Source: a virus (taxonomy: Duplodnaviria; Heunggongvirae; Uroviricota; Caudoviricetes). Taken from it: a stretch of 64,000 nt of DNA. The notes under the pieces were generated by a model. That model was given only the letters and a program-made list of their open reading frames with translations. It was not told the origin of the DNA and ran no database searches. Both the position numbers and the translations under genes were made by a program. The stretch covers positions 1 through 64,000 of the IMG/VR virus record IMGVR_UViG_3300036860_000563, one strand, 5' to 3'. This document shows positions 1,971-25,918 of the stretch, piece after piece (positions within the stretch are counted from its first letter, which is position 1; every line of letters starts with the position of its first letter).

Positions 1971-3881
1971 TCACACCAACGTCTCAGTCGTGGAGATGTG
2001 GGAAGTTGACTCGTCGAAGACGTACGGGAGCTTAGCACCCCACGACTCACCGCGTGACACGGACGCGGTGATCGGAACGTTGAGTAGCTGATCGTCGTTC
2101 ATGATCTTACGAAGAGTGTGAGCGACGTCAGCGACGTGCTCACCGGGTACGTCCAGCAGCACCTCGTCGTGCACAGGTGCGAACATCCACTCATCGAGAC
2201 CCGCGCTGGCGAGCTCCACGAGCTTCATCTTAAAGATCTCACCAGCGCCGCACTGGATGATGAAGTTGACGAGCGCGTACTCCTTGCCCTCGTCGGCGAT
2301 GAGCCACCGCTGGGTGAACGGTGAGCGCACCCCACGCACACCACTACCGCGCGCCGCGCTTAGTGCGGTGTTGATCACGTCGCTCTGAAACCGTTGAACA
2401 CCCGGGAACCGCTGGTTCCACACACCGCGAAACGCGCGTGCGTTCTCGAGCGATATTCCGGCGGTCTGTGCGAACTTCGGTACGCCGGCGCCATATAGAG
2501 TAGCGTACGTGGCGTTCTTCGTTACCTGTCGCCGTGGATCGCTCTTAGTGATCGTGTCGTCATCATAGATCAGGCGCGCGAGGTTGACGAAGAAGTCACC
2601 ACCGTCGGTGAACGCCTTGATCATCGTGTGTTCATCCGCGACGTGAGCGAGTAGGCGAGCCTCGATCTGATCGAAGTCACACATCACGAGTGACCCACCC
2701 GCGTGACGAGTTGTGATCATGTTACGCACCACGTCACCGGGACGACTCGTGCCGAACCGTGGCAGGTTCTGCACGTTGGGACTGTCCATCGACATACGTG
2801 ACGTCCGCGCACCGAGTGTGTTGATGGACGGGTGAAGCAGGTCGTCCGCGTCGGCCTCCTCGACGTAGAACCGCAGGTAGGTCGACGCCATCTTCTGCAC
2901 CTGCCGACGCTGCAGCACAGCGCGCGCGAGCGGGTGATCGATCCCGTCGAGAACGTCGGCGTCGAGTGACTTTGCGCCCGACTTCGTCGCCTTGGAGAAC
3001 GTGAACCCGGCGTCTTCGAGGATCTCAATGATCGCAGTACTGGAGCCAGGTTTCACACCGTACTCCCGCCGACACCACTCTTCGACGCGTTCACAGTAGT
3101 CCTCGAACTCACGCAGCTTCTGCGTGGCGAGTGCTCGATCGACGTGCACACCGTAGCGCTCCATGCGCTCGGTGACCCAGAGGACGGCGCGCTCCAGGTC
3201 ATACGCCTTTGGTGCCTCTCGCTGGGTTATCGGGTAGTGGTGCTCGAAGAGCCTATACGTCAGCACCGGGTCCAGGGCGGCGTACGCCCAGTACGGCTGG
3301 TAGTCCAGCGGAACCGTAGCCCACGTCCACTTCGTGCCCGCGAGCTCGGTCTGCAGACCGGCGGCGGCGGCGTCGACGTGTCGCGTCGCCTGGTTCTTCA
3401 GTGCCATCGACATGTGAGGTTCGTTGATCCGTGACAACACCATGGTGTCATGCACCCGGTGACGCGGTAAACACACACCAGCGCGGTCGAGGAACGCCAT
3501 GTCAAAGGTGCTGTTGTGTAAGATCCAGTCACCCTGCCACGAGCGCACGAGCGACTCCATGATGCCACTCCACCGGTCCCACGAGAACGCGAAGCCACGC
3601 GCACCGTCGCCGACCTGCACGAGACGAAGTGTGTCTCGTTGCTTATTCAACCCGGTCGTCTCGGTGTCCAGTCCCAGCGCGTTCACCGGACGACGCTCGC
3701 CCAGCCATGAGTGAAGGGTGATGACGTCCTCGAGTGAGTTGACGAGGTGAAGCTTAACGTCACCGAGTGTCACGAGTTCACAGCTTCTTCCTCTTCCTCT
3801 TCCTCTTCCTCTTCCTCTTCCTCTTCCTCTTCCCACAGTGCCACACTGTGTCCGGTCATAGCACTGTGGAATGAGTGCCAC
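1971..3881 (-). CDS. polA: DNA polymerase I (family A) with 3'-5' exonuclease domain
   Basis: Exo motif LGLDTETTGLN. Polymerase motif B KNATYATLYGAG and motif C APVHDEVLLDVP. N-terminus uncertain: GTG 3881 includes (GR)9 encoded by (CTCTTC)n; alternative GTG at 3773 (VTLGDVKLHL). Neither has a good RBS. Confidence 0.85.
   Translation of the reverse strand: MALIPQCYDRTQCGTVGRGRGRGRGRGRGRGRSCELVTLGDVKLHLVNSLEDVITLHSWLGERRPVNALGLDTETTGLNKQRDTLRLVQVGDGARGFAFSWDRWSGIMESLVRSWQGDWILHNSTFDMAFLDRAGVCLPRHRVHDTMVLSRINEPHMSMALKNQATRHVDAAAAGLQTELAGTKWTWATVPLDYQPYWAYAALDPVLTYRLFEHHYPITQREAPKAYDLERAVLWVTERMERYGVHVDRALATQKLREFEDYCERVEEWCRREYGVKPGSSTAIIEILEDAGFTFSKATKSGAKSLDADVLDGIDHPLARAVLQRRQVQKMASTYLRFYVEEADADDLLHPSINTLGARTSRMSMDSPNVQNLPRFGTSRPGDVVRNMITTRHAGGSLVMCDFDQIEARLLAHVADEHTMIKAFTDGGDFFVNLARLIYDDDTITKSDPRRQVTKNATYATLYGAGVPKFAQTAGISLENARAFRGVWNQRFPGVQRFQSDVINTALSAARGSGVRGVRSPFTQRWLIADEGKEYALVNFIIQCGAGEIFKMKLVELASAGLDEWMFAPVHDEVLLDVPGEHVADVAHTLRKIMNDDQLLNVPITASVSRGESWGAKLPYVFDESTSHISTTETLV
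3785..3833. repeat. (CTCTTC)n hexanucleotide microsatellite, about 8-9 units
   Basis: Seen directly. Translates as (GR)n in the polA frame and as poly-Glu in overlapping ORF 3770..4015. Confidence 0.9.
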
Positions 3882-3900
3882 TCAGCTCGTGCGAGTGGCA
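3874..3900 (-). other. perfect 9-bp inverted-repeat hairpin (GTGCCACTC / GAGTGGCAC) between dCMP deaminase and polA
   Basis: Seen directly. A second small hairpin, CACAGTG-CCA-CACTGTG, sits at 3833..3849. Confidence 0.3.
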
Positions 3901-4002
3901 CCGAGAACACTGTGGTGATTTGACAACTCTCACATCGACCACGATATCTCGTTAAGATTGACGACAACAGCGGCGACCATGGTGCGTTGCTTCTCGTCGC
4001 AG

Positions 4003-4476
4003 TCACGACACGCACGTAACCTCCAGCTCGCAGTTGGTGAGAAGTTCGTATGATCTCTCCGGGTTACGATGAGTGCCGCGCTCACGTCGACGTACGACGA
4101 CACGTCGTAGGCCCGAGTTGGCGATGACCTTAGCACACCCGAAGCAGACGTCACTCGTGACGTAGATCGTACCGCCCTCACGCGCCGATCGATCACAGAC
4201 TGACAACCCGTTGAGCTCAGCGTGTGATGATGGGCAGTCTGTGTAGTCCGAGTTGAGCTTCTCATCACGGTTAGTTAACGCTGCTCGCTGACACCACGCA
4301 CGACACGGTAGGTTACTGTGCGTGAAACCCCTGGGTGGGCCGTTGTAGCCCGTCGCGACGATGCGGTTACTCACGTTCACGATGACAGCACCCACCTGGT
4401 CGCGAACACAGAGACTACGCCGTGCGACGACGTCAGCGACGTTGAGCCACGTCTCGTCCCACGACGAGCGCGTCAC
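4003..4476 (-). CDS. dCMP deaminase (deoxycytidylate deaminase zinc-binding fold)
   Basis: SHAELNGL (HxE zinc ligand) and DVCFGCAKVI (CxxC zinc ligands). Extra LPCRAWC Cys pair. Confidence 0.75.
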   Translation of the reverse strand: MTRSSWDETWLNVADVVARRSLCVRDQVGAVIVNVSNRIVATGYNGPPRGFTHSNLPCRAWCQRAALTNRDEKLNSDYTDCPSSHAELNGLSVCDRSAREGGTIYVTSDVCFGCAKVIANSGLRRVVVRRRERGTHRNPERSYELLTNCELEVTCVS

Positions 4477-4733
4477 GATGAGTCTCCGTCATCACGCGGC
4501 GTAGTCTTTGCACGACGCGGGCACGACGGACACGAACACACGCCCTCGGCGCACAACACGTACCCGACTCCCTCCCGGAACAGGTCACTGATTGTAATGT
4601 CACGCCGGTTCGCGATGTCACGTAGCGTGGCGGCTAGGCCGAACGGAAGTCGCACCGAGTGCACCGACCCGAGCATCTTAGGATCTACGGGTGTAGGACT
4701 TGGATCGTGACCGGGTTCGGTGAGCTCAGTCAT
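4473..4733 (-). CDS. ribbon-helix-helix (CopG/Arc-like) small DNA-binding protein with Cys-rich tail
   Basis: VRLPFGLAATLRDIANRRDITISDLFREGVGYVL resembles an RHH strand plus two helices. C-terminal CSCPSCP. ATG 4733 lies 2 nt after the ThyA-like stop. ATGA overlap with the downstream gene. Confidence 0.4.
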   Translation of the reverse strand: MTELTEPGHDPSPTPVDPKMLGSVHSVRLPFGLAATLRDIANRRDITISDLFREGVGYVLCAEGVCSCPSCPRRAKTTPRDDGDSS

Positions 4734-4735
4734 GG

Positions 4736-5572
4736 CTATGATGAAAGTTCCGTGAGTGGTGTGAGCTGATCGCGGTACCAACACTCACTCATAGTCATCG
4801 TGGGGATGTCAGAGTAGGGTAACGTCCGGGCGCGCATCATGATCGAGTGAAAGTTGTCCTCCACGCTTCCGAGACCACGCGGCTGCCACTCGGGTGGTCC
4901 AACCGCCGGGCGTAGCCACTCGACTCTCTCCACGTCTGCCTCGTAAATGTGTGTTGACCACGTGGTGTGACGATACGGGCCGGGTGATACACCCAGCGCG
5001 CGCGCCGCCGTCTGCTGGAGCTGAGTGAACTGAAACCAGTCGTAGGGGGACCCGAGCCAGACGTCCTGTGAGCGCATGGTGGTGCGTAGGTGCAACTGAT
5101 CGTTCTTGAGCTCGAAGTGGAGCGCCACGGTGCACGGGTAGTCACGGTGCCCCGGTAGGTTGTCCAACCACGGGTCCCACAGTGTGATGACGGCCTGCCG
5201 TGTCGCTGGGTCAGCGCGTAGCTTGTGGAGTGCGGCGGGCACCTGCAACCGAACCCGGTCACCGTACGCCCCGTAGAACCGCTGGGTGTCGGGTTCGAGA
5301 AACCGCTGAAAGTTTGGCGACGCGGTGATGAGTAACCGTGGGTCGCTAAACCCGCCGATGAGCTGCACCGCCTCCGCCGCCGCCACACGTCGGTTGACGT
5401 CACGACAGACGCCCAGTGGGAGTGATCGGCTAACGTCGTACATGATGACGGTCAGCTCACCTGCGTCCAGCGTCGGCAGGCCTCGCGGCGCGCGTCGTTC
5501 CCCGTGCTTGATGACGTAGTTCACGACATCGGCGTAGCCGACCACACCGTTCTCGATCTCGATGGTACTCAC
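4736..5572 (-). CDS. ThyA-family enzyme (thymidylate synthase / dNMP (hydroxy)methylase homolog) with Asp at the pyrimidine-specificity position
   Basis: Aligns to E. coli ThyA. GERRAPRGLPTL ~ dRTGTGTL. DPATRQAVITLWDP ~ DPDSRRIIVSAWNV. YPCTVALHFEL ~ APCHAFFQFYV (catalytic Cys). MRSQDVWLGSPYDWFQF ~ QRSCDVFLGLPFNIASY, where the ThyA N177 / T4 dCMP hydroxymethylase D179 equivalent is Asp. The Cys-to-Arg spacing (20) is conserved. Confidence 0.7.
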   Translation of the reverse strand: MSTIEIENGVVGYADVVNYVIKHGERRAPRGLPTLDAGELTVIMYDVSRSLPLGVCRDVNRRVAAAEAVQLIGGFSDPRLLITASPNFQRFLEPDTQRFYGAYGDRVRLQVPAALHKLRADPATRQAVITLWDPWLDNLPGHRDYPCTVALHFELKNDQLHLRTTMRSQDVWLGSPYDWFQFTQLQQTAARALGVSPGPYRHTTWSTHIYEADVERVEWLRPAVGPPEWQPRGLGSVEDNFHSIMMRARTLPYSDIPTMTMSECWYRDQLTPLTELSS

Positions 5573-5705
5573 GATGATGAGTCTCGTCGGTGCATTTCAC
5601 GCTTATTCTCGTACTTAGCCATCAACCATAGTGAACCGAGCGTCATCATCACGACACAAACACACGTGACGGAGAATATCCAAGCGAACAGCTGCTCGAG
5701 ACCGG

Positions 5706-6662
5706 TCACAGTGTTACCTCCGATGAGCGTGAACCGTGGAGTAAAGGTGTGGTGACTCCAGCCGCGTCGAGAAGCCGTGTGACGTACTCTCGTTGAGCGT
5801 GATGATGAAAGCGACGAGCGTGCTGCGGGTGCTCAACGCGACCGAACCCCACCAGCCCGGCGCTCGTCGCGGCGATCGCAGAGTTGTGACCCAGCGTCAC
5901 GGCCGGTGGGGCGCCGAGCGTCGTGTACGTAGCGCGTAGCTCGTCACCTGACAGCTCACACGCGTTGAGGACACCCACCCGCTGGACGTTCACATCGGCG
6001 CTCACCAGGGCGTCGAACAACCAGAGGCCGGACGTGCCGACAGCTGGGCCGAAGGGCCACGGTAACGCGCTCGCCGGGGTGTGGCCGGGGTTTCGGCGGT
6101 CGCCGAGTAGCAGTAAGCCGGGGTCGGGTGGACCGACGTAACTGGGCAGTGAGACCGGACGAGTCCTCTCCGCCAACCTTATGACGTCGACGGGGTCGTG
6201 GGGTTCGTCGGTCAGCAGGGTGAACCAGTGAGCGTGTGAGCGTGAACCACAGTACTCATCATATCGCAGCGCAACGTGTGCGAGCTGTTCGACGTCGATG
6301 AGATCATCACCACGCTCGACGAATCGGCCCAGGAGTGTCTCGGGTTGAGCTGTCACGTGAATGAACGTCGCACCGAGGGTACGTAGCACCAGCTCTACGT
6401 ACGCGGCCTGCCCCAGTGATAAGATCGATCTCTCGCGTAAGAGCGGACCGTAGATGAGCTCGCCCACGTGCCAACGATCCAACACGTGATGTCGTTCATC
6501 CCCGACCAGCGCACCCAGTGGTACGAGGTACTCACCCATCCCGGTGGCAGCGTGGGGTGGTGGACCCTTCTTCCAGTGGTGTGTGGTGCCGAGGTGTCGT
6601 ACCAGCTCGCGCGCGAGTGTCGTCTTACCCCCGCAGTCAGGCCCCTCTAGTACGATAATCAC
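5706..6662 (-). CDS. dNMP (thymidylate-kinase-like) kinase fused to a C-terminal uracil-DNA-glycosylase-superfamily-like domain
   Basis: N-terminal IIVLEGPDCGGKTTLAREL (P-loop) and LDRWHVGE (DR[YH] motif). C-terminal LGDRRNPGHTP...LPWPFGPAVGTSGLWLFDAL resembles UDG family 4/5 motif A (GEAPG..E..G.PFvG.AG.LL). TLGHNSAIA resembles motif B. Confidence 0.55.
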   Translation of the reverse strand: MIIVLEGPDCGGKTTLARELVRHLGTTHHWKKGPPPHAATGMGEYLVPLGALVGDERHHVLDRWHVGELIYGPLLRERSILSLGQAAYVELVLRTLGATFIHVTAQPETLLGRFVERGDDLIDVEQLAHVALRYDEYCGSRSHAHWFTLLTDEPHDPVDVIRLAERTRPVSLPSYVGPPDPGLLLLGDRRNPGHTPASALPWPFGPAVGTSGLWLFDALVSADVNVQRVGVLNACELSGDELRATYTTLGAPPAVTLGHNSAIAATSAGLVGFGRVEHPQHARRFHHHAQREYVTRLLDAAGVTTPLLHGSRSSEVTL

Positions 6663-6667
6663 GGTGA

Positions 6668-7048
6668 CTACACTACCACCGTTCGGGCAACCGGTGTGAA
6701 CGTGACGAGGGTGACGTCATGTGACCTAGCCCACGTCACGTCACTCTTCGTAGGTGCTGGCTTGGTGATGAAGTCGAGGACACGGCGCGCGTTGGGCCGG
6801 CCGAGGTGATGACGTCCACGCGCTCGTCGTAGCGCGTGACGCTGGAGCCGTGGACGCGCACCCCGACCGGTCGTGAACCGGCCGTCATCTTCATCGTGAG
6901 GACGCGCGTCACGTCGCTCGAGCTGATGATCACGGCGCGCGAGCACCGTGACGGCCAGCGACGCGGCGATGAACAGCACGAGACCGACCAGCACCGTCGA
7001 CCCGAAGAAGCCGAGCGCCAAGAAACCAAGACCACCGGCGAGTGTCAC
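6668..7048 (-). CDS. small membrane protein
   Basis: About 35 hydrophobic N-terminal residues (two TM-like segments), followed by an Arg-rich region. Confidence 0.35.
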   Translation of the reverse strand: MTLAGGLGFLALGFFGSTVLVGLVLFIAASLAVTVLARRDHQLERRDARPHDEDDGRFTTGRGARPRLQRHALRRARGRHHLGRPNARRVLDFITKPAPTKSDVTWARSHDVTLVTFTPVARTVVV

Positions 7049-7108
7049 AGCTTACCTACCTCTTCTCCTGCTTCTCTAAAGACCGTTCGGCGCTCTCTGA
7101 CGTCGTCA

Positions 7109-7837
7109 TCACCGCACGAGATCCAGCTCAGTCTGCACAGCGACAAGTCGATCCCACTTTTGCGCCTTCTCGGTGACCACGCCGTCGGCGCCCGCGGTGC
7201 TCTGCACGAGTTGAGCGAGCGTCACGAGCTCGGTCGTTAGCGTCACCAGGGTTGAGACGACGGTCTCGAGTGATGTGGCCACCGCGAGCACGCGCCGGCC
7301 CAGCTCGTGAGCGTTCTCGTCGGCGAGTTCCGGAACGGCGCCGTTGCTCGCGCTCGGTGTCGTCCGAGAAGCGCGTGATTCGTACCGAGTGCGTAGGTTA
7401 GGGAAGCGCTCGGTGTGCTTGCGGTACAGGACCGACACCTGTGAGCCCGTCCACAGGCCGCCACGAAGTGTACGTACACCGCGATCGTTCAGGTCGGAGG
7501 CCGCGAGTTCGTAGCGGTTGTGACGATCGAGGTGTCGGCACACGGCGCGGATCAGGGTGCGAAGTGTCTCGTCGGAGTAGGCCGGTCGTCGCTTGCCGAC
7601 GTAGTGAGCGAACATGTGCGACGTCACCGACTTGACGTTGGGAGCGACGTACTCGTAGTTCGGATGCTCGCACTCGAAGAGCTCGGTTTCGTCGGCGAGC
7701 AGCAGCTTCGTCACGTTCCGGTACGGTACCAGCTTACCGCCGTACTGGGGGTGTGGGTGAGGACCAACGGCTCGCTCACGCGCGATGATCTCGCGGCCGT
7801 CGGGGGTCATCTTCGTCGTCTTCATCACTCGTACCAC
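7109..7837 (-). CDS. hypothetical protein
   Basis: 242-aa ORF with high third-position GC. Helical, Thr/Leu-rich C-terminus. Confidence 0.45.
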   Translation of the reverse strand: MVRVMKTTKMTPDGREIIARERAVGPHPHPQYGGKLVPYRNVTKLLLADETELFECEHPNYEYVAPNVKSVTSHMFAHYVGKRRPAYSDETLRTLIRAVCRHLDRHNRYELAASDLNDRGVRTLRGGLWTGSQVSVLYRKHTERFPNLRTRYESRASRTTPSASNGAVPELADENAHELGRRVLAVATSLETVVSTLVTLTTELVTLAQLVQSTAGADGVVTEKAQKWDRLVAVQTELDLVR

Positions 7838-8878: not shown

Positions 8879-9168
8879 TAGGTCACATCGCTTATGAAGT
8901 GACCGGGTGACGCGGGTGTAAACCGAATGGCCGCAGTTAGATCAACGCCACGGCGAGGTGCGTCGGTGCACATCTTGGCCCACGTCAGCGGGCCAACGTT
9001 CCGATCGTCGTACATGTTAGGTGTGAACCAGTGACGAGTTGGTTCGCCGAAGAGTACCATCGCAGCTACGTCATCTCGCACCACGACGGTGCTGTAGTTG
9101 TCTTCGGTCTCCGGCCAGTAGAGAACCGTGCCGTCGGGTGGCTCCGGTAGAGTGAGGTCATCGGTCAT
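8878..9168 (-). CDS. hypothetical protein
   Basis: 96-aa ORF. Confidence 0.35.
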   Translation of the reverse strand: MTDDLTLPEPPDGTVLYWPETEDNYSTVVVRDDVAAMVLFGEPTRHWFTPNMYDDRNVGPLTWAKMCTDAPRRGVDLTAAIRFTPASPGHFISDVT

Positions 9169-9781
9169 CGAACGTCTCCTCGGTGTTTACTCGCCGCTGG
9201 TGAAACGCCTCGGCGATCAGTAGCGCGACCGATCGTAGTGTCGTTGTGGTCGCGTGCTCGGCCTCCAACTCCCAGTGTTCTTGACCCGCGCGAAGGGCGT
9301 CGTCAACCGCGGTAGCCGTGATGGCCGCGGCGCGCACCATCTCCCGGGCTTCGACGGCCGCGAGCGCGGTCACGGTCGCTCGCACCAACCGGGACTCGTA
9401 CTCATCACGCACGAGTCGTCGTTCGTCCTCGACGCGCTGAGCGGCGAGTCGCTCCACGGCCGTGACGCGCGCCGCCTCCGTGACACTCTGATCCAGTTCG
9501 TAACCGGTCGCCCACGCGAACAGCGTCGCGAGGTTGACACAGGCGAGTGCCTCGACACGCTGTCGTCCCGTGGCATCAAAGTCGCCGTGCCACAGAGTGA
9601 CATGCTGCTCAACACTAGCGTCCGCCGAGCAGTCAGCCCCGGGCCAGAATCCCGCGTTGTCGAAGATCGTACCCTCGACGGTCACGCACAGCTCCTGCTC
9701 GTCGGGCTCGTGCCAGTTCGGGCGAACACCGAGCTCACGCGCGAGTTCGACCAGCTCAGCACGCCGGGTGATTCGTCTCAC
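9158..9781 (-). CDS. hypothetical protein
   Basis: 207-aa ORF, Ala/Glu-rich and helical. Confidence 0.4.
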   Translation of the reverse strand: MRRITRRAELVELARELGVRPNWHEPDEQELCVTVEGTIFDNAGFWPGADCSADASVEQHVTLWHGDFDATGRQRVEALACVNLATLFAWATGYELDQSVTEAARVTAVERLAAQRVEDERRLVRDEYESRLVRATVTALAAVEAREMVRAAAITATAVDDALRAGQEHWELEAEHATTTTLRSVALLIAEAFHQRRVNTEETFDDR

Positions 9782-9879: not shown

Positions 9880-10731
9880 TCACTCATAAAAGTGATCCGG
9901 AAGACCAAACATGTCCGGGCTCTCAAGGATCATCGCGCCAATGTCAGTGTCCCGGTTGCTCTCGTTGCGCACGAACGGCTCGATCATCCGGCCACGGGGA
10001 TCGAAGTTGCTGAAGTACATGATGGACTTACGCTCGGGATCGTACTCCTCCGGCGAGCTGACTCGTAGGTTGCGTGCCTGGTGGAACAACGGCGGGATCT
10101 CCTCACCGGTCATCGCCGTCAGGATGCTGCCCGGCATGATGAACACCTCGTCCGAGGCCGGTGTCAACGATGTGATCACGTCGTTGTGAAAGATCTCCAA
10201 ACCCGGCGCGCTGGTCCAGATCACGGTGGCCACCACGCCGTCCTCGTGCCTGGTCTGCAGCAGCTCGCGCTCGGTCGGCGTGTGGAACGAGTTGAACTGA
10301 AGCACCGAGGTCGCCTCAAACGGCAACGCGGCAACACTCTCCACACCCTCGCCGTAGTACTCGCACAACTCGGCGACCAGGCGGGACATCAGCACGACGC
10401 AGACGTCGCGACGGTAGTCCTCCAGCGCGGTCAGCAACGGCCTGATCAGACCAAACTCTGGGATCGAGTAGGCCGACCTCACACCCCAGAAGAGAAAGGA
10501 GTCGTTGAGGTCCACGGCGTTGGGATCACCCGCGTGTGCGGCGCCCAGTGGCCGGTACCCGTTGTTCAACTTTGGCGATTGGTGCAGCGCTTGGCGCTCG
10601 GGATCGCGCTGGCTGAACTCCGTGGTCTGATCGTACAGCTCGGTGAGCAGGCGCGCCTGCCACGCGCCGAGCTGAACCCGGGCGAACCCCGCCACACGGA
10701 ACTGGGTCAACAGCGGCAACGCTACGCACAC
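9880..10731 (-). CDS. 2-oxoglutarate/Fe(II)-dependent oxygenase (isopenicillin-N-synthase-like fold)
   Basis: RHEDGVVATVIWTSAPGLEIF (HxD plus GLQV-like strand), FHQARN (distal His), RKSIMYFSNFD (Arg-x-Ser 2OG binding). Confidence 0.6.
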   Translation of the reverse strand: MCVALPLLTQFRVAGFARVQLGAWQARLLTELYDQTTEFSQRDPERQALHQSPKLNNGYRPLGAAHAGDPNAVDLNDSFLFWGVRSAYSIPEFGLIRPLLTALEDYRRDVCVVLMSRLVAELCEYYGEGVESVAALPFEATSVLQFNSFHTPTERELLQTRHEDGVVATVIWTSAPGLEIFHNDVITSLTPASDEVFIMPGSILTAMTGEEIPPLFHQARNLRVSSPEEYDPERKSIMYFSNFDPRGRMIEPFVRNESNRDTDIGAMILESPDMFGLPDHFYE

Positions 10732-11009
10732 CGTGAAGAACCCGTCGCGGGTGCGAGACGCGCTGTGTCGAGACCGGCGACGAACTCGGCGCTACGCAGA
10801 GTAAACTCAGCGCGAAGAGCGCGCCACTCTCGCCAGGCGAAGATGCCACCGTGATAGCCGTACCACGTGGTGATCGCGGTGCGACGCCGTGCGTCGTCGC
10901 GGAGCGCGCTCAGGTAGCGAGCGTTGACGACGGTGAGCTCGCCCAGCGCGTGGTAGTCGCGCTCACCCAGCGCCCGGTCATACGGTGCGTGGCACGAGTG
11001 TGTGGTCAC
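10722..11009 (-). CDS. hypothetical protein
   Basis: 95-aa ORF overlapping the oxygenase start by 10 nt. Confidence 0.25.
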   Translation of the reverse strand: MTTHSCHAPYDRALGERDYHALGELTVVNARYLSALRDDARRRTAITTWYGYHGGIFAWREWRALRAEFTLRSAEFVAGLDTARLAPATGSSRCA

Positions 11010-11503
11010 CCGACACCCGCCTCCAGCCAGCGATCATACGCGACGGACAACCCGTGATCACGCGCGGCGGCGAGCTCGATCGCCTCCACGGACGCGTCCG
11101 GCAGCACCGGACGTCGCTGCCGCCACTGGGTGAGCAGCTCCATCACCTTGAACGCTGTGTCGGCCCAGGCGACGCGCGCGAAGTCGATCTCATCGGGCAC
11201 GCGAGTGCGCCCGAGTGTGTGTACGAGGTACGTCGCGCGCTCGGACACGACGTCGTCAACCACACGGTAGATCGCCACCTCGAACCAGCGACACGCGCGG
11301 CAGCGCCAACCCGGGGGTGCGGTGTCACCCAGGTGCTGGTGCTCCCGCTGGTGGGATGACGCCTCACCGAGCAGGCTTCCCCGGAACGAGACGTTCTCCC
11401 CACCGCGTCCACGCACGGTGTACACTCGTGTGAGTGCGTCACCCTGTGTGGTGACCCCGGTGGGTGGGCCGACGTTGGCGGAGTCCGCCACCTCATCGAT
11501 CAC
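11006..11503 (-). CDS. hypothetical protein
   Basis: 165-aa ORF. Confidence 0.4.
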   Translation of the reverse strand: MIDEVADSANVGPPTGVTTQGDALTRVYTVRGRGGENVSFRGSLLGEASSHQREHQHLGDTAPPGWRCRACRWFEVAIYRVVDDVVSERATYLVHTLGRTRVPDEIDFARVAWADTAFKVMELLTQWRQRRPVLPDASVEAIELAAARDHGLSVAYDRWLEAGVG

Positions 11504-11600: not shown

Positions 11601-12122
11601 CTACGTACGGTGTGAAGATGAGGGTTGAACGATCGCCGTCGCACCCTCGTTCGTGAGAGCACGATGTACACGGTTGGCCTCATCGAGGTCGGTGTGGGTG
11701 AGCACGTCGACGGGCGCGGACTCGACGAACTCCTTCGCATCGCGAATGCCGAGGGCGAGTAGTCGACGAATCGTCCGGATGATGGGCAGCTTGTTGGGGC
11801 CAACGTCGACGAGCCGAACCGTGAACTCGGTGGGCTCATCTTCCACGCTCAACTCGCCGACGGCATCACCAACCGCATCACCAGGTGGTGACACGAGACG
11901 TGCCGGCTCGGCTGTGACGTCGAACGTCTCCGCGAACCGACGATGAAACTCGGTCAGCTCGACGAGAGTGAGGCCCCCGAACGCTTCGAGTAGGTCAGAG
12001 ACACGACTCTCACCACTCTCACCACTCTCACCACTCTCACCACTCTCACCACTCTCACCACTCTCACCACTCTCACCACTCTCACCGCTCTGCTCCACGG
12101 GTCTTTGCCTCCTCACAACCAC
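11601..12122 (-). CDS. ribosomal protein bL12 (L7/L12)-like protein with an inserted (ESG)9 repeat
   Basis: C-terminal domain EFTVRLVDVGPNKLPIIRTIRRLLALGIRDAKEFVESAPVDVLTHTDLDEANRVHRALTNEGATAIV matches the L7/L12 CTD pattern (EFDV.L...G.NK..VIK.VR..TGLGLKEAK.LVE.AP). N-terminal-domain-like SDLLEAFGGLTLVELTEF. The ESG repeat is encoded by (CACCACTCT)9. Confidence 0.65.
   Translation of the reverse strand: MVVRRQRPVEQSGESGESGESGESGESGESGESGESGESRVSDLLEAFGGLTLVELTEFHRRFAETFDVTAEPARLVSPPGDAVGDAVGELSVEDEPTEFTVRLVDVGPNKLPIIRTIRRLLALGIRDAKEFVESAPVDVLTHTDLDEANRVHRALTNEGATAIVQPSSSHRT
12005..12089. repeat. (CACCACTCT)n 9-nt tandem repeat, about 9 units
   Basis: Seen directly. In frame as (ESG)n within the bL12-like gene. 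Confidence 0.9.
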
Positions 12123-13768
12123 GGCCAGTGTGCGTCACGACCGGCCTCTAAGAGTGGGATCAACGTGAACGCCGCGTCGGTGAGGCCACCGAAGGTGTGA
12201 CGGTTGTGACTACCCGCCGGCGCGTGACCGCGCTCGTAGCCCGCGAGGTTCCACGTGTAGAGTGGCGTCGTCGTGGGAACGACGGCGCTCACCTCGACGT
12301 GAGTGGCGTCCGCGGCGGCCTGCTCGTCGGTGATGATGATGACGCGATCGTGACCAGCGTGGTGTTGACGCAGCGCCGCGGCGGTCGCGGTGCCACCACC
12401 GAGGAAGAAGCCGTCACTCGCCCAGCGGGAGAGTGTCGTGAGTAACGACTCACCGTCCCGGAGTGCGAACGTCTTCGTGTGCGCGCCGTGTGCGTCGCCC
12501 CACACTCGGGCGGCCGACGAGAACGACACGAGGTCGGCGCTCTTCGCGCGACCGGCGAGCGCCGCGCCAAAGATCACCGCGACGTCCCAGCGCTTAAGTG
12601 TGCTGTTGTGCGAGAACTGCTCGTCCATCGAGGACGACGTGTCCACCAGGATGAGCGTCCTGCCGGTGAGCCGAGGAACGTTCGCGAGACAGTAGTTGAG
12701 CGCGCGCTCGAGCGGGTACGCCCAGCGGAGGCTGGGTGCCGCGCGGTGCGCCGCGAGAAGCCGGAGGGGAAGCTGCCGTGACCGCGCGACCTCGATCGGG
12801 TCGGCGAGCCTCGCTGCCACGGTCTGTGCGACCGCGTCTCGGACGCCCGCCTCGTCGAGGTTGCGCAGGTTACGTAGTAGTGCCATGTACCCCATCGAGG
12901 GCGCGAGTGCCTCCCACAGTAGGTTCTTCGGTAGCCGGTCGCCGGCTAGCGAGAGCACGTTCTCCCACGTCATACCCGCCGCGGCCAACGTCTCTACGTC
13001 GAGTAGCCCTGAGATACTGCTCTCTGCGACCAGCGAGCGCAGCTCAGCGTTGCGACGAACCGTCGTCAGCAGCTTGGGAACGGCGTTGTCGTGGCCGTGC
13101 CGCCGGTCCAGGGCGTACTTGAACAGCTCACCTTGCCACGGTGCGGTCGGACGTGGGTGAGTCAGCTCGACGACGTCCCCGAACCGAAACGCGTGTGATG
13201 TGGTGTCGTACTTGAGCAGCGCGCGCTCGGTGTAGAGTCGCCGAACGGCGTCGGTGACGCCACGCTTAACCGGCTGGGGTAGGTTCCGACCGTAGGACAC
13301 GACGTAGTACGCCAGCAGCTCACCCGGCTCGTCGGCGCGCCGCAACACCGCGTCGACGAGCGCCCGCGCCAGTCCCCTGTCGTCGGAGAGGCCCGGTACC
13401 TCGTAGGCCGGTACGGACCCGAGGTCAGGACGCTCGCGGCGCGCTCGGATGAACTCGACGGCCCCGACGAGCGGCGCGGAGCGAAGGTCGGCGTCGGCGC
13501 GGAGCCAGCGGAGAAGCTGGAACACCCACACCGGGTCGGTGACCGCGACGGCACGCACCAGCTCACGAAACCGTGTGTCTCGCCGGGACGCTGACTCGTA
13601 GAACGCATCCTCACCCACGAGGTTTGACACGGCGAGCAGGAACAGCTCACTCTTCTCGTCACGGGCGTAGCCGGGTGCGCCCTCGTGTGTGAGACCGCCG
13701 GGTGTAGCCTCGGTGGTGACCGGGCTGGTCGTCGCCGGACGGACGCCGAGAACGTTGAACTTAGTCAT
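12113..13768 (-). CDS. rsr: Ro60/Rsr ortholog (TROVE domain + vWA with MIDAS)
   Basis: Blocks matching human Ro60: ALLRNL (identical to Ro60 LTALLRNLG); RTLILVDTSSSMDEQ ~ RFLLAVDVSASMNQ (DxSxS MIDAS); GGGTA ~ GGTD; RVIIITDEQ ~ VFIVFTDNE; GGLTDAAFTLI ~ CGFDTGALDVI. Confidence 0.7.
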   Translation of the reverse strand: MTKFNVLGVRPATTSPVTTEATPGGLTHEGAPGYARDEKSELFLLAVSNLVGEDAFYESASRRDTRFRELVRAVAVTDPVWVFQLLRWLRADADLRSAPLVGAVEFIRARRERPDLGSVPAYEVPGLSDDRGLARALVDAVLRRADEPGELLAYYVVSYGRNLPQPVKRGVTDAVRRLYTERALLKYDTTSHAFRFGDVVELTHPRPTAPWQGELFKYALDRRHGHDNAVPKLLTTVRRNAELRSLVAESSISGLLDVETLAAAGMTWENVLSLAGDRLPKNLLWEALAPSMGYMALLRNLRNLDEAGVRDAVAQTVAARLADPIEVARSRQLPLRLLAAHRAAPSLRWAYPLERALNYCLANVPRLTGRTLILVDTSSSMDEQFSHNSTLKRWDVAVIFGAALAGRAKSADLVSFSSAARVWGDAHGAHTKTFALRDGESLLTTLSRWASDGFFLGGGTATAAALRQHHAGHDRVIIITDEQAAADATHVEVSAVVPTTTPLYTWNLAGYERGHAPAGSHNRHTFGGLTDAAFTLIPLLEAGRDAHWPWL

Positions 13769-17452: not shown

Positions 17453-17866
17453 TTGATATCAAGAGTTAATGATAACGAAAGTGGTGTTGTACCGGCACCT
17501 ATCACCGGCCTGGACGGCATCCGGTGGGCACTCATGCCGACGAAGTACGCGGAGGCGACACTACGGTCATTCGGGCAGCTAGATCACGTAAATGAGTTCA
17601 TCGAGTGGCTCCGGGACCGCGACGTGCTCCAGGTCGTGGACATGTCCCAGATGCCGGTGTCACACTGCACCAAGGCGACGGAGCTGCACGAGTGGTACGC
17701 GCTCTGGGTTAAGAAGCACGGTGATAAGCAGGACAGGGCCGAGGCGCTCAACCTACGAGACTTCTGTGCGGCGCTACGCGACCGCGGCTGGGTGTCGCGG
17801 CAGAGCGCGGGGACGCGCTGGGTAGGAACTCGGCTCACGCAGGTCCCGGGAATCTGGTCACTTTAA
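17453..17866 (+). CDS. hypothetical protein
   Basis: TTG-start ORF (alternative ATG at 17534). Confidence 0.4.
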   Translation: MISRVNDNESGVVPAPITGLDGIRWALMPTKYAEATLRSFGQLDHVNEFIEWLRDRDVLQVVDMSQMPVSHCTKATELHEWYALWVKKHGDKQDRAEALNLRDFCAALRDRGWVSRQSAGTRWVGTRLTQVPGIWSL

Positions 17867-18314
17867 GTCACCCCACTGACCAGCGACGAGTAATGATTCA
17901 GTAATACTGGTTGGGTAAACTGGGTGCCAAATGAGAGTACAGATCACTGACATCACTATGTGATGGACTACTACTAGCTTAGTTTGTACTTAGTTTGTAC
18001 CTTATTGTAAGTAGAGAGTATAGGGGGATTTGGGGAGAGTTACCAGCTAGATGACTTGCCCGTGAACGATTGTAACCTTGTACCCACTAGTCGTGAAAGC
18101 TCGCGCGAGCGTCTGCGCGACGTGCGCGTCTGAGGAGGCTGGGGAAACTTTTCGGAGCCAGGTGCTTACAGGGTACAAAGTGGAGTTAATGACACAGAAT
18201 CACGTAGTTGAGGACCTCACGTCGCCCGGGCCTCTCAACACGGCGAGCACGACAGCCTAACGCACGAGTGCGTGAACTTTGTGGAATTAGCACACATGTG
18301 AAGAACTGTCGCCC

Positions 18315-20598: not shown

Positions 20599-20916
20599 GT
20601 GTTGCAAACCGTCGGTGACGACTCGTCAACCCACCGACTGGGTGAGAGGGAGGATGATGTGAGGGCACACGGTCGCGTGTCGACGTACACCAACGGGGGT
20701 TGTCGCTGCCTCGCCTGCACCGAAGCGAACACCGCTCGCGTTCGACGAGCCCAGCTTAAGCGCGCCGAGCGGCTCATCGTGAATCCTCAACTCGTTGTTC
20801 ACGGCCGTGCGTCGACGTACACCAACTGGGGTTGTCGTTGTAGACCGTGCACCGATGCGAACACCGCTTCGAGCCTAGTTTATAAGCGTAGTCGACGAGC
20901 TGCGGCCGGTGCGTGA
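20599..20916 (+). CDS. small protein with tandemly duplicated HGR(V/A)STYTN(G/W)GCRCxxCT(E/D)ANTA motif (putative zinc/DNA-binding)
   Basis: Two roughly 22-aa copies are visible in the translation. Confidence 0.45.
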   Translation: MLQTVGDDSSTHRLGEREDDVRAHGRVSTYTNGGCRCLACTEANTARVRRAQLKRAERLIVNPQLVVHGRASTYTNWGCRCRPCTDANTASSLVYKRSRRAAAGA

Positions 20917-20935
20917 CGAGAACGATGGGAGTAAC

Positions 20936-21391
20936 GTGAGGTACGTCGAGGCGCCTCATCCACTGTACGACGTGCGCGAGCGAGCGCTGTTTCTCGCCGG
21001 TGGCATCACCAACTGTGTTGACTGGCAGAGTGACGTGGTGACGTGGCTGCGCGACCAGCGCATCACAGTGCTGAACCCACGGCGGCCGAACTTCGACGTC
21101 GGGAACCGGGCCGCGGCGTACGCCCAGGTTGCGTGGGAGCATCGTCACCTGCGACTCGCCGACGTCATCCTGTTCTGGTTCCCGGCGTCGGGCGACGTCG
21201 CGCAGCCGATCGCGCTCTACGAGCTCGGCTACTGGGTTAACTCCAGTAAGCAACTCGCGGTGGGAGCGCACCCGGACTACGTGCGACGATACGACGTAGA
21301 GCTGCAAGTTAAGCTCACGCGGCCGGCGCAGGTGATTCACGGTGACCTCATGAACACGGTGGCGGACGCCGTCGAGCTGCTAAAGTGGTGA
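20936..21391 (+). CDS. nucleoside 2-deoxyribosyltransferase / DNPH1(Rcl)-like enzyme
   Basis: ALFLAGGITNCVDWQ and IALYELGYWVNSSKQLAV fit the family's YLAG and E.G.A...K motifs. GGGAG RBS before GTG 20936 (the ORF opens at 20909). Confidence 0.55.
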   Translation: MRYVEAPHPLYDVRERALFLAGGITNCVDWQSDVVTWLRDQRITVLNPRRPNFDVGNRAAAYAQVAWEHRHLRLADVILFWFPASGDVAQPIALYELGYWVNSSKQLAVGAHPDYVRRYDVELQVKLTRPAQVIHGDLMNTVADAVELLKW

Positions 21392-22800: not shown

Positions 22801-23285
22801 CCGACTTTTCCGACGCTGACATTGGCCGACTGGCGAGCGTGTTGCACGCCGACATGTGTGGCTGGAACTGCCCGGGTCATGGCGCTATGCAGCCGATTCA
22901 GGACGCCACGTACCGCTCGGCCGCCACCGCCGCGCTGCGACACCTCGCTAAGACCGGCCGGCTCGTTCCAGAGGGCGCGGAGACCCTACGTCAAGTGGAT
23001 CACGGCGGTGCTGACCAAAAGGTGACTGTAACTGGCCAACCGCGTCTTGGCGACAGGGTACGGGTTCGGTGTGGTGCGACTGGCCGCTACCTCACCAACG
23101 GACTGGCGTTGTACGTCTCCGTGCAGGACAACGAGCTCGGCATTGATGAGATCAACTCTGACGGAGTGGCGCCACACCCGACGTTGTCGGTGCCGACCGA
23201 CGACGAACTACGTGGTGCGCTCGCCGGGTTGATCACTATGAACGTAAGACGTGAGAGTTCATCGAGGAGGCGACGTGAAGATTGA
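22797..23285 (+). CDS. hypothetical protein
   Basis: GTGA overlap at the start. Confidence 0.4.
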   Translation: MTDFSDADIGRLASVLHADMCGWNCPGHGAMQPIQDATYRSAATAALRHLAKTGRLVPEGAETLRQVDHGGADQKVTVTGQPRLGDRVRVRCGATGRYLTNGLALYVSVQDNELGIDEINSDGVAPHPTLSVPTDDELRGALAGLITMNVRRESSSRRRRED

Positions 23286-23868
23286 ACTCACCACCGTCGG
23301 CCCAACGCTTCATCGAGGAGGCGACGTGAAGATTGAAGATATGACGTGGTCAAGGTCAAGTGAACTTATGTTATCACCGTCGACGCTCCACGCCGTGCAG
23401 GTTGAGGCGATGCGCGCGCACTTGAAGCACGGTGATCGATCGTTGCTCAACCCGACGATGCTGGCGGTCGAGAAGCTGGCCGCACTCGTCGAGGAGGTCG
23501 GCGAGGTGGGTCGCGCGCTGACCTATGACCAGGACCACTCCGAGGGACTGATCAGGGAGCTGATCCAGGTGGCTAGCGTCGCACTGTCCTGGGTTGAGTC
23601 ACTCACGGTGACGCTCGCTCGCGGAGAGCTGGCCGAGAGCGACGTGAGCACGTCACCGGCCGTGGCCGTAGCGGGTGACCGGCCGGTCGCGGGCGACGGT
23701 CACACCTACTCTTCCGCGGACGGGGTGGACATCACACGTCCCACGGTGTGTCCCTGCGGTCACTCAACGATCGATCACATCGGTACTCGGACCGGCGCCC
23801 AGGTGCGGACGGTGTGTGCGATCAGTGGATGTGAGTGCTTCGGTACCTCGTGGCACTCCGACCGGTGA
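23275..23868 (+). CDS. MazG-like nucleoside triphosphate pyrophosphohydrolase (all-alpha NTP-PPase)
   Basis: LAVEKLAALVEEVGEVGRAL...EGLIRELIQVASVALSWV fits the MazG helical EExxE core. Two possible GTG starts (23275, 23326), each inside a 29-bp exact direct repeat carrying a GAGGAGG RBS. C-terminal Cys/His cluster CPCGHSTIDH...CAISGCEC. Confidence 0.6.
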   Translation: MKIELTTVGPTLHRGGDVKIEDMTWSRSSELMLSPSTLHAVQVEAMRAHLKHGDRSLLNPTMLAVEKLAALVEEVGEVGRALTYDQDHSEGLIRELIQVASVALSWVESLTVTLARGELAESDVSTSPAVAVAGDRPVAGDGHTYSSADGVDITRPTVCPCGHSTIDHIGTRTGAQVRTVCAISGCECFGTSWHSDR

Positions 23869-25860: not shown

Positions 25861-25918
25861 ACATGTTCTTCTTCATCGGCTTTGTGGTGGGACTACCGGT
25901 CTTCTACGTGATCGCTCG

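Follow-up and report, generated by a model that had tools for sequence, protein, structure and literature searches.

The locus raises the question of whether its thymidylate synthase (TS) homologue makes dTMP or acts on dCMP and leads to modified cytosine in the phage DNA. Genes for a dCMP deaminase, the TS homologue and a kinase lie on the minus strand of a 64-kb window, the whole stretch of DNA that was analysed, in a genome of 62% GC whose host is probably a high-GC actinobacterium. Absences of genes refer to this window; of the source contig, apparently 94 kb long, some 30 kb lies outside it. A sequence-only reading had proposed that the TS homologue acts on dCMP and does not make dTMP, that its neighbours complete a pathway to a modified-cytosine dNTP, and that the virion DNA contains 5-hmC, 5-mC or a derivative. 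All the sequence tests run support the first two proposals. The favoured reading, with a probability of roughly 0.7, is that the operon is a pre-replicative pathway supplying 5-hydroxymethyl-dCTP to the phage's own family-A polymerase. The virion DNA would then probably carry 5-hydroxymethylcytosine.

The TS-family protein (278 aa, 4736..5572, minus strand; PF00303, Thymidylat_synt, 3.6e-21) is predicted to be a dCMP hydroxymethylase (5hmdCMP synthase). Its Cys147, in the motif YPCTV, aligns with the catalytic Cys146 of Escherichia coli ThyA, as had been noted, and the catalytic residues E58, Y94, R126, C146, R166, S167, H207 and Y209 (E. coli numbering) are present, with Cys146, Glu58, Tyr94, Arg166, His207 and Tyr209 invariant in 119/119 homologues. 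The residue that had been singled out as setting uracil versus cytosine specificity also holds. Three independent MAFFT alignments place Asp178 (motif SPYDWF, codon GAC at 5041-5039) in the column of ThyA Asn177 and T4 gp42 Asp179, so that Asp and not Asn occupies the specificity site, and a HMMER alignment to MilA keeps Asp in the same register. Because all 119 metagenomic homologues in a 127-sequence alignment carry Asp in this column, neither a sequencing error nor an accident of alignment can account for it. According to studies cited in PMC8670742 and PMC6400193, changing ThyA Asn177 to Asp shifts specificity to dCMP and the reverse mutation cripples the T4 dCMP hydroxymethylase.

Positions 177 and 143 of ThyA are diagnostic (PMC13326640, PMC6400193), and an acidic residue at 143 is taken to admit water and to give a hydroxymethyl rather than a methyl product (same sources). 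Positions 147 and 177 are the two TS sites most associated with cytosine-modified contigs (PMC8670742). At positions 143/147/169/177 the present enzyme has D/T/D/D, invariant in 119/119 homologues, whereas E. coli ThyA has L/H/D/N, SPO1 gp29 and M6 gp58 D/N/D/N, and PaMx74 N/P/D/D. The codons, read directly on the minus strand, are Asp144 at 5141-5143, Cys147 at 5132-5134, Thr148 at 5129-5131, Asp170 at 5063-5065 and Asp178 at 5039-5041. Asp144 (RDYPC) aligns with T4 Asp145, and it and Asp170 are each found in every one of the 119 homologues. Retention of Asp at 169 goes with folate-type chemistry. T4 gp42 has the same fold and the same residues as the present TS at 143 (D), 147 (T), 165 (M), 167 (S), 169 (D) and 177 (D), but is only about 17% identical to it and lacks the C-terminal extension of some 60 residues that is peculiar to the present family. 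Since the signature equals that of gp42 at all the tested sites, the predicted product can be narrowed to 5-hydroxymethyl-dCMP; the methyl alternative, which had been left standing, fits D/T/D/D less well, with Asp at 143 pointing to hydroxymethylation. Four to six residues are the basis on which we infer substrate and product here, and identity to the characterised enzymes is no more than 17-31%.

The best PDB match is MilA (5b6d, 8e-15), the CMP 5-hydroxymethylase of mildiomycin biosynthesis, which like the present TS has Asp at 143 and 177 and Thr at 147. However, MilA has the Ala176/Lys133 pair that favours ribo-CMP and belongs to an antibiotic cluster, not to a phage replication locus. 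Ser167 and Arg126 give a deoxyribose preference, and Ala167 and Lys126 a ribose preference (PMC5175136). The present enzyme has the deoxyribo pair, Ser168 and Arg125, each in 119/119 homologues, which indicates a deoxyribonucleotide substrate and leads us to reject a CMP hydroxymethylase of the MilA/BcmA type.

The surrounding genes are arranged as a replication operon. The order kinase, TS, dCMP deaminase, PolA, RuvC, SNF2 helicase is kept in up to 29 of 29 long related loci; the deaminase adjoins TS in 26 of these and PolA follows the deaminase in all 29. In the window the SNF2 helicase ORF is cut by the left edge, extending past position 2. The polymerase (1971..3773, minus strand; PF00476 2e-59) has a 3'-5' exonuclease domain (PF01612 2e-12). 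Its true start is probably the GTG at 3773; the alignments of its relatives start at query residues 35-42. The three ORFs of the original trio are real, and independent gene calling on L009, a Logan contig of 5.5 kb with identical sequence, again gave products of 318, 278 and 157 aa, but two further small ORFs, described below, lie in the same interval.

A TS with Asp177 beside a dCMP deaminase and DNA_pol_A is the modified-cytosine module found by MetaGPA (PMC8670742; bioRxiv 10.1101/2024.12.05.627091), and is a published genomic signature of phages in which C is replaced by modified C. TS lies less than 3 kb from a dCMP deaminase in 70% of cytosine-modified metavirome contigs and in 6% of unmodified ones, of these TS 85% have a predicted dCMP specificity, and DNA_pol_A ranks among the leading co-localised domains (bioRxiv 10.1101/2024.12.05.627091). 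The present phage, with the same three domains within 3 kb, Asp177 and a residue other than His at 147, is thus a further case of a known marker. The MetaGPA examples followed experimentally are mostly methylases (5mdCMP) with 5mC-selective deaminases, whereas the present clade is distinguished by a hydroxymethylase signature, an actinophage-type polymerase and a kinase-UDG fusion.

This fusion is where the earlier description of a Tmk-like dNMP kinase falls short. The protein (318 aa, 5706..6662, minus strand) has two domains. Residues 1 to about 150 (nt 6213-6662) are a YorR/thymidylate-kinase-type P-loop dNMP kinase domain, with GxxGxGK(T/S), the NMP-kinase fold and Tmk homology; the match to phrog_761, 'thymidylate kinase' (1.8e-13), covers residues 1-139 alone. 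Residues from about 170 to 305 (nt 5748-6155) have the alpha/beta fold of the uracil-DNA glycosylase (UDG) superfamily, nearest to family 4/UdgX. Family 4 enzymes carry a [4Fe-4S] cluster held by four Cys and the motifs GE(A/G)PG and HP(S/A). The present domain has a single Cys, LLLGDxRN as motif A and HPQY as motif B, and cannot be counted as a typical family 4 member; its glycosylase activity is therefore uncertain. It retains a set of invariant residues resembling a pyrimidine pocket. Among deposited phages the fusion was found only in DSL-LC01, and it was not previously known.

The 157-aa deaminase-family protein (4003..4476, minus strand; PF00383, dCMP_cyt_deam_1, 1.7e-15; phrog_174 5.7e-37) has intact zinc motifs, HAE and C-x-x-C (SHAELN and VCFGCA in the translation). 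It matches human dCMP deaminase (2w4l, 6e-14), T4 cd (1vq2, 7.5e-14) and the PBCV-1 dCMP/dCTP deaminase (7fh4, 2.4e-7). Two more distant genes on the plus strand may act on nucleotide pools. The DNPH1-like gene matches PF15891 (Nuc_deoxyri_tr2, 1.1e-22), and its start is corrected, to give 20909..21391; the 160-aa nucleoside 2-deoxyribosyltransferase-like product also matches the uncharacterised protein 4mcj (7.6e-10) and is a possible dNMP N-glycosidase. The gene read as MazG-family, from 23275 or 23251 to 23868, finds moderate support in its fold and in the source names of its homologues, but has no Pfam or PDB sequence match. Taken as 23251..23868, it encodes a candidate all-alpha NTP pyrophosphohydrolase with a MazG-superfamily-like core at residues ~43-130, an unstructured or Cys-rich C-terminus, and ExxQ where ExxD is usual; the metal-binding motifs of this four-helix fold are ExxE...ExxD. 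A role as a dCTPase is a guess.

In the pathway that we favour, Cys147 and methylene-tetrahydrofolate would put a one-carbon unit on C5 of dCMP, with Asp178 selecting and protonating the cytosine. Asp144 would leave the site open to water, so that the exocyclic methylene intermediate is hydrated and not reduced. The products would be 5hmdCMP and THF, and dihydrofolate reductase (DHFR) would therefore not be needed. The kinase domain would phosphorylate 5hmdCMP, host NDP kinase would form the triphosphate, and PolA would incorporate it to give virion DNA with full or partial 5hmC, possibly decorated further by genes that are unrecognised or off the window. The deaminase may feed host dTMP synthesis by turning dCMP into dUMP, or may deaminate part of the modified pool, and the MazG-like and deoxyribosyltransferase-like proteins are candidates for clearing nucleotide pools. 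The UDG-fold domain probably serves either to excise U or hmU from DNA or to hold the kinase at the replisome. We likewise infer the specificity of the kinase, how much of the cytosine is replaced, and what the deaminase, the MazG-like protein and the UDG-like domain do.

The T-even hmC pathway (gp42, gp1, cd, gp56 and glucosyltransferases) similarly has a dCMP deaminase and a dNMP kinase alongside the hydroxymethylase, and to this extent the parallel drawn with the T4 trio stands. However, the present kinase, a YorR/Tmk-like fusion to a UDG fold, is not a homologue of gp1, and the present genes are packed, together with that for a family-A polymerase, into a single tight operon. T4 also has its own dTMP synthase and alpha/beta-glucosyltransferase, neither of which was detected in the 64-kb window: no second TS, ThyX or DHFR was matched there, nor were the glycosyltransferases T4 beta-gt and those of LuckyBarnes and DSL-LC01, and the ORFs scanned in the window gave no match to a glycosyltransferase Pfam. 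With no gp56 homologue found in the window, and the MazG-like candidate having ExxQ for ExxD, neither the exclusion of dCTP nor, as a consequence, full replacement of dC is assured. GC-rich palindromes are not avoided, which speaks weakly for the favoured reading.

The least unlikely alternative, though still improbable, is that 5hmdCMP is mainly an intermediate: the deaminase in cis would make the 5hmdU nucleotide, and hmU, alone or with 5hmC, would replace thymine and could then be a substrate for hypermodification. In a 62% GC genome there is no obvious need to boost dTTP, and additional dUMP would be of little use to a GC-rich phage, which leaves room for a deaminase acting on a modified nucleotide. 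When 90 deaminases encoded in cis with an Asp177 TS were screened in vivo, 7 deaminated 5hmdC nucleotides, but the TS linked to deaminases with demonstrated activity on modified C were of the methylase type (bioRxiv 10.1101/2024.12.05.627091). The pyrimidine-pocket-like residues of the UDG-fold domain would suit the presence of hmU. The closest relative on a long contig, L006, has a homologue of the 5-hmdU DNA kinase 5-HMUDK (PF18723, 1.6e-34) that also matches the phage M6 locus, a hint of hmU chemistry in one or more members of the clade. Against this, just one of the 29 long related loci has such a homologue and the window yielded none, neither aGPT-Pplase nor any other thymidine-hypermodification gene was seen there, and all characterised hmU phages have Asn177 enzymes.

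A variant, which we consider about equally doubtful, is that a single Asp177 hydroxymethylase is the source of two modified bases. The deaminase would convert part of the 5hmdC pool to 5hmdU, C and T would both be replaced, hmU would be hypermodified in some members of the clade such as L006, and the conserved kinase-UDG fusion would be a replisome-tethered device for channelling or proof-reading. To our knowledge, neither a 'dCMP-first' route to hmU nor a physical coupling of kinase and glycosylase has been described so far.

Less likely again is a dCMP methylase of the XP12/PaMx74 type, giving DNA with 5-methylcytosine, with the deaminase converting some of the 5-methyl-dC pool to dT nucleotides. 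Methylases of this kind combine Asp177 with a non-acidic residue at 143, produce DHF and usually come with a phage-encoded DHFR. Such a route would fit the lack of a separate dTMP-forming TS in the window. The PaMx74 enzyme shares Asp177, this 5mC phage also has TS and deaminase with a family-A polymerase nearby, and the same arrangement is described for XP12 (bioRxiv 10.1101/2024.12.05.627091). However, where the present family has an invariant Asp144 as in hydroxymethylases, and Thr148, PaMx74, the one reference on which this comparison rests, has Asn143 and Pro147, and it has a DHFR gene (frd) beside TS, which is unmatched in the present window.

It is very unlikely that the enzyme uses dUMP despite Asp178, either as an ordinary thymidylate synthase, the label that databases give the family, or as a dUMP hydroxymethylase of the SPO1 type that the deaminase supplies. 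Deaminase, TS homologue and kinase are also the classical 5hmU pathway (PMC8989533), so the gene trio does not in itself point to cytosine, as had been supposed; only the active-site residues discriminate. SPO1 gp29 and M6 gp58 share the trio and Asp143 with the present phage, but both of these verified dUMP hydroxymethylases carry Asn177 and Asn147, and the mutational results cited above tie Asp177 to dCMP. Canonical ThyA is rejected by D/D/T in place of Asn177/Leu143/His147, and by best scores of 46-57 bits against NCBIfam ThyA equivalog cutoffs of 108-427.

A flavin-dependent 5-hydroxy-dCMP synthase (RB69 gp48, DLP3 gp80 or RL38J1 type) feeding glycosylated 5-hydroxycytosine can be set aside. 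Such an enzyme would likewise have Asp177 with an acidic residue at 143, a glycosyltransferase and a UDP-galactopyranose mutase are encoded by DSL-LC01, and the second-best solved relatives, 9iqu/9iqc, appear to match the published signature of such enzymes at 169 and 177 (9iqu, compared by residue pattern alone, has N in the Asp170 column and D in that of Asp178), but the diagnostic D169N (PMC13326640) is absent from the present family, in which Asp170 is invariant.

The favoured 5hmC reading bears on a large clade, with 441 TS homologues at E<=1e-5 and many contigs of 60-68 kb. The claim that such DNA would be unusual in a high-GC actinophage goes too far on genomic grounds: soil actinophage-like contigs commonly carry the module, and cultured Gordonia and Micrococcus phages have at least its core. 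The TS of Gordonia phages Phendrix, GodonK and Forza, Micrococcus phage Kurnik and Actinomycetia phage DSL-LC01 are 32-44% identical to the present one and are annotated simply 'thymidylate synthase'; the motifs of the Kurnik protein are almost identical to those of T4 gp42. In Phendrix, Forza, Kurnik and DSL-LC01 the kinase gene is directly upstream of a D/T/D/D TS, as here, and in Phendrix, Kurnik and DSL-LC01 the deaminase and polymerase follow, directly or past a few small ORFs. A literature search found no published chemical analysis of the DNA of these phages.

If the reading is true, a large and for the most part uncultured clade of soil phages that infect high-GC Gram-positive bacteria, including easily grown Gordonia and Micrococcus phages, swaps cytosine for 5hmC, and T-even-style pre-replicative cytosine modification extends to actinobacteria. 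Streptomyces reportedly have 5mC/5hmC-dependent restriction enzymes of the SRA-HNH family, such as ScoA3IV/Sco5333, for which these phages would provide a target rationale. There would also be consequences for sequencing and cloning biases and for phage therapy against actinobacterial pathogens, new hmC-tolerant polymerases, deaminases and kinases could be drawn from the clade, and dozens of 'thymidylate synthase' database entries would need relabelling. The kinase-UDG fusion is a small separate lead, as nucleotide supply may be coupled to surveillance of uracil or hmU in DNA.

Both of the small ORFs in the operon were called on L009. The 86-aa ORF (4473..4733, minus strand), inserted between TS and the deaminase, resembles ribbon-helix-helix proteins; this assignment was made by eye, the match to DUF6290 being weak (0.12). 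With a tblastn match in L009 alone among 89 loci, it is specific to the present phage. The 46-aa ORF (5569..5709, minus strand), between kinase and TS, matches no family, and relatives L005 and L006 have an ORF of 69-73 aa in its position. Its start and stop overlap the flanking genes, a sign of probable translational coupling.

The 278-residue protein encoded at 4736-5572 (-) belongs securely, by its profile matches, to the thymidylate synthase (TS) family (PF00303, 3.6e-21, and four PHROG TS families), and it scores far under every ThyA equivalog cutoff. Three separate alignments, with E. coli ThyA, T4 gp42, SPO1 gp29, M6 gp58 and PaMx74 ThyA as references, place its Cys147 opposite Cys146 and its Asp178 (codon GAC, 5041-5039) opposite E. 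coli Asn177 and T4 gp42 Asp179. The numbering of the E. coli ThyA sequence agrees with all conserved motifs. The HMMER alignment of MilA keeps the Asp in the same register, and the column is Asp in 119/119 metagenomic homologues (47-63% identity). The sequence-only reading, which had put an Asp at the position of ThyA Asn177, is thus confirmed.

Other positions help to specify the chemistry. Position 143 (ThyA numbering) is Leu in methyl-forming ThyA and Asp or Glu where the exocyclic methylene is left unreduced (PMC13326640; PMC6400193). At position 169, enzymes with folate-type chemistry have Asp, whereas the recently discovered flavin-dependent 5-hydroxy-dCMP synthases have Asn (PMC13326640). 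Sites 177 and 147 have the strongest association with cytosine-modified metavirome contigs (PMC8670742), while Ser167 and Arg126 mark enzymes with deoxyribo substrates, and Ala and Lys the ribo-CMP enzymes (PMC5175136). The window's protein reads D143/T147/S167/D169/D177/R126; T4 gp42 is identical at each site, and the family is invariant at them in the 119-homologue alignment. The resulting D/T/D/D signature at 143/147/169/177 contrasts with L/H/D/N in E. coli ThyA, with D/N/D/N in SPO1 gp29 and M6 gp58, which are verified dUMP hydroxymethylases, and with N/P/D/D in the enzyme of the 5mC phage PaMx74, which has an adjoining DHFR. The closest solved relative is MilA, a cytosine hydroxymethylase; the second-best, PDB 9iqu, has Asn at 169 in place of Asp. 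Taken together, the identity with T4 gp42 at these sites, the family invariance, the sub-cutoff ThyA scores and MilA as best relative make a dCMP hydroxymethylase producing 5hmdCMP the best-supported prediction. The earlier proposal that the enzyme acts on dCMP is thereby supported and can be sharpened to a hydroxymethylase of the T4 type. Such an enzyme feeding 5-hydroxymethylcytosine (5hmC) into the DNA is a supported reading, in which substrate, product and DNA composition are all deduced from sequence.

Window ORF calls and profile matches place the gene in a tightly packed, co-directional string running from 6662 to 2, all on the - strand. The string comprises a 318-residue kinase-containing protein (6662-5706), a 46-residue ORF (5709-5569), the TS protein (5572-4736), an 86-residue ribbon-helix-helix (RHH)-like ORF (4733-4473), a 157-residue dCMP deaminase (4476-4003), a family-A DNA polymerase (PolA; 3773/3881-1971), a RuvC-like ORF (2050-1508) and the first 410 residues of an SNF2-type helicase (1231-2), which exits the window's left end. 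An identical 5.5-kb Logan contig gives the same gene calls, with start/stop overlaps between several neighbours. Since the helicase ORF crosses the left edge, the replication module is cut by the window; in relatives a PD-(D/E)XK nuclease and then an AAA_24 (RecA-like) gene lie past the helicase. The 86-residue ORF between TS and deaminase has an RHH-like N-terminus and a Cys-rich tail, and was found in none of 88 other loci examined, among the matches listed. The gap between deaminase and PolA contains, at 3786-3833, a perfect repeat of eight hexamers, (GGAAGA)8 when read on the - strand; it ends a short way upstream of GTG 3773, where PolA probably starts. The longest PolA ORF reads this repeat as (GR)n, so the 636-residue call is probably some 36 residues too long.

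The PolA matches are essentially only to phages of Mycobacterium, Microbacterium, Arthrobacter, Gordonia, Rhodococcus and Streptomyces, and together with the window's GC content of 60-65% this makes an actinobacterial host very likely. When 3500-7500 was compared by Megablast with 50,697 phage records, no match appeared, so a close sequenced relative at the DNA level is lacking; relatives in IMG/VR reach 58% or less.

The gene arrangement is itself informative. In a preprint survey of metavirome contigs, 70% of the dCMP-deaminase genes on cytosine-modified contigs, but 6% of those on unmodified ones, had a TS gene within 3 kb, 85% of deaminase-linked TS were predicted to be dCMP-specific and DNA_pol_A was among the top co-localised domains (bioRxiv 10.1101/2024.12.05.627091); modules of this type are thus an established genomic mark of phages with modified cytosine. 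The sequence-only reading had likened the trio of deaminase, TS and kinase to that of T4. By itself the trio does not discriminate, because the classical 5-hydroxymethyluracil (hmU) pathway also uses a deaminase, a TS homologue and a dNMP kinase (PMC8989533); it is the active-site residues that do. The actinophage-associated clade is a further case of a known kind of system, not a new kind, and its sole structurally new element is the fusion found at 5706-6662, where the 'kinase' protein has two domains, the C-terminal one resembling a uracil-DNA glycosylase (UDG). In the UDG-like domain, Gly187, Phe204, Asn233 and His278-Pro279 are invariant and Asp188 is present in at least 90% of homologues; neither the four-Cys cluster nor the canonical motif A of family 4 UDGs is present in it.

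At least 80 JGI loci, obtained with a family profile, and the Logan loci were scanned with the window's proteins. Among the matches listed for the 29 loci that are 14 kb or longer, TS and PolA occur in 29/29, the kinase domain and SNF2 helicase in 28, the deaminase in 26, RuvC in 22 and the UDG-like domain in 21, and the order and strand of the module genes are constant throughout. Many of the related contigs are 60-68 kb long, mostly from soil or rhizosphere.

The core module with the D/T/D/D signature is also present in several deposited phages, where the enzyme is always annotated 'thymidylate synthase'. One is the metagenome-assembled Actinomycetia phage DSL-LC01, where genes for a glycosyltransferase and a UDP-galactopyranose mutase and one of dUTPase_2/MazG type lie close by. 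The full T4-type signature is carried by the cultured Gordonia phages Phendrix (3800-4684) and Forza (3971-4819), the two taken into the alignment (GodonK adjoins Phendrix in the match lists), and by the cultured Micrococcus phage Kurnik (OR756649, 4081-4830), whose TS motifs, GMHDFICTNT and MRSNDAVYGFRNDYAW, are nearly identical to the T4 gp42 ones. These three cultured phages make the 5hmC prediction directly testable. Chemical data did not turn up in literature searches for hmC in actinophages, including ones directed at Gordonia phages, DSL-LC01 and Kurnik; the expectation that such a modification would be unusual for an actinophage holds only in that it has apparently never been measured in one, but the module is already present in several deposited actinophages.

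The deaminase (4003-4476) has intact zinc motifs and matches dCMP(/dCTP) deaminases of human, T4, S. mutans, cyanophage and PBCV-1 origin. Some TS-linked deaminases are active on 5-methyl- or 5-hydroxymethyl-dC nucleotides (bioRxiv 10.1101/2024.12.05.627091), and in some members of the clade the deaminase may convert 5hmdC nucleotides to 5hmdU. Such a route is kept in play by the closest long-contig relative (Logan SRR34572450, 21 kb), which combines an Asp177 (cytosine)-type TS, 63% identical, with a homologue of 5-hmdU DNA kinase (HMUDK; 17625-18578 (+); PF18723, 1.6e-34) downstream of the helicase, between the PD-(D/E)XK nuclease and AAA_24 genes. This suggests either hmU in that phage or phosphorylation and hypermodification of hmC. 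Among the matches listed, none of the other 28 long loci has an HMUDK homologue. The neighbours of this gene and of the Kurnik and DSL-LC01 modules showed only DUF669 and AAA domains and no thymidine-hypermodification partners.

Elsewhere in the window, two genes may serve the nucleotide pool. One (20909-21391 (+)) encodes a nucleoside-2-deoxyribosyltransferase-like protein (PF15891, 1.1e-22; PDB 4mcj) and lies 2 kb upstream of the other, a MazG-like gene (23251-23868 (+)). The MazG-family assignment made earlier survives as probable membership of the all-alpha NTP-PPases; the protein has zero Pfam matches (also at E<=10) and zero PDB sequence matches and does not resemble the MazG of DSL-LC01, and a putative dCTPase role is unproven. 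Two homologues of the MazG-like protein (P0193 and P0194) carry a fused DUF4406 (deoxyribosyltransferase-like) domain which, with the proximity in the window, hints that the two proteins act together on a nucleotide pool.

Searches for further pathway genes covered the 64-kb window, about 30 kb of an apparent 94-kb source contig lying outside it. In the window, tblastn had no match below E~0.02 for DHFR, T4 gp56, the T4 beta-gt, LuckyBarnes and DSL-LC01 glycosyltransferases, UDP-galactopyranose mutase, the HMUDK homologue, the M6 HD hydrolase or the PW916 methyltransferase/NTP-PPase, and a second TS was undetected in the 64 kb. The single ThyX-motif regex match is antisense inside PolA. A 2OG-Fe(II) oxygenase-like gene (9880-10731 (-)) was set aside as a TET/JBP-like modifier, the matches being weak (Pfam 5e-4; PDB 8xht, 0.023); it is absent from the related loci, among the matches listed, and so probably lies outside the conserved pathway. 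Pfam, PHROGs and NCBIfam gave no function for the conserved ORFs at 7109-7837, 9158-9781, 11006-11503, 18315-19280 and 19538-20512. Three genes are of RNA-repair type: a TROVE (Ro60-like) and VWA protein (12113-13768 (-)), a polynucleotide kinase-phosphatase (AAA_33 and HAD_PNKP, 3e-54; 25772-27055 (+)) and an RlaP nucleotidyltransferase (29775-30491 (+)).

Over the whole window, GC-rich 4-mer palindromes are not avoided (CCGG z +10.9, GCGC +5.6, GGCC +0.75, GATC +0.2), and only CATG and CTAG are under-represented; the lack of avoidance is compatible with protected DNA, though the test is too weak to carry weight.

The signature also bears on existing annotations. Brevibacterium phage LuckyBarnes (NC_047851, 3992-7156) differs in having a 517-residue TS homologue of hmU type, with Asn177. 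Two glycosyltransferases labelled as hmC glucosyltransferases come after it, which suggests glycosylated hmU instead of hmC in this phage. Pseudoxanthomonas phage PW916 (OL960029, 3280-4098) has Asp177, Thr147 and Asp143, a cytosine hydroxymethylase signature, and its annotation as a 'deoxyuridylate hydroxymethyltransferase' is probably wrong.
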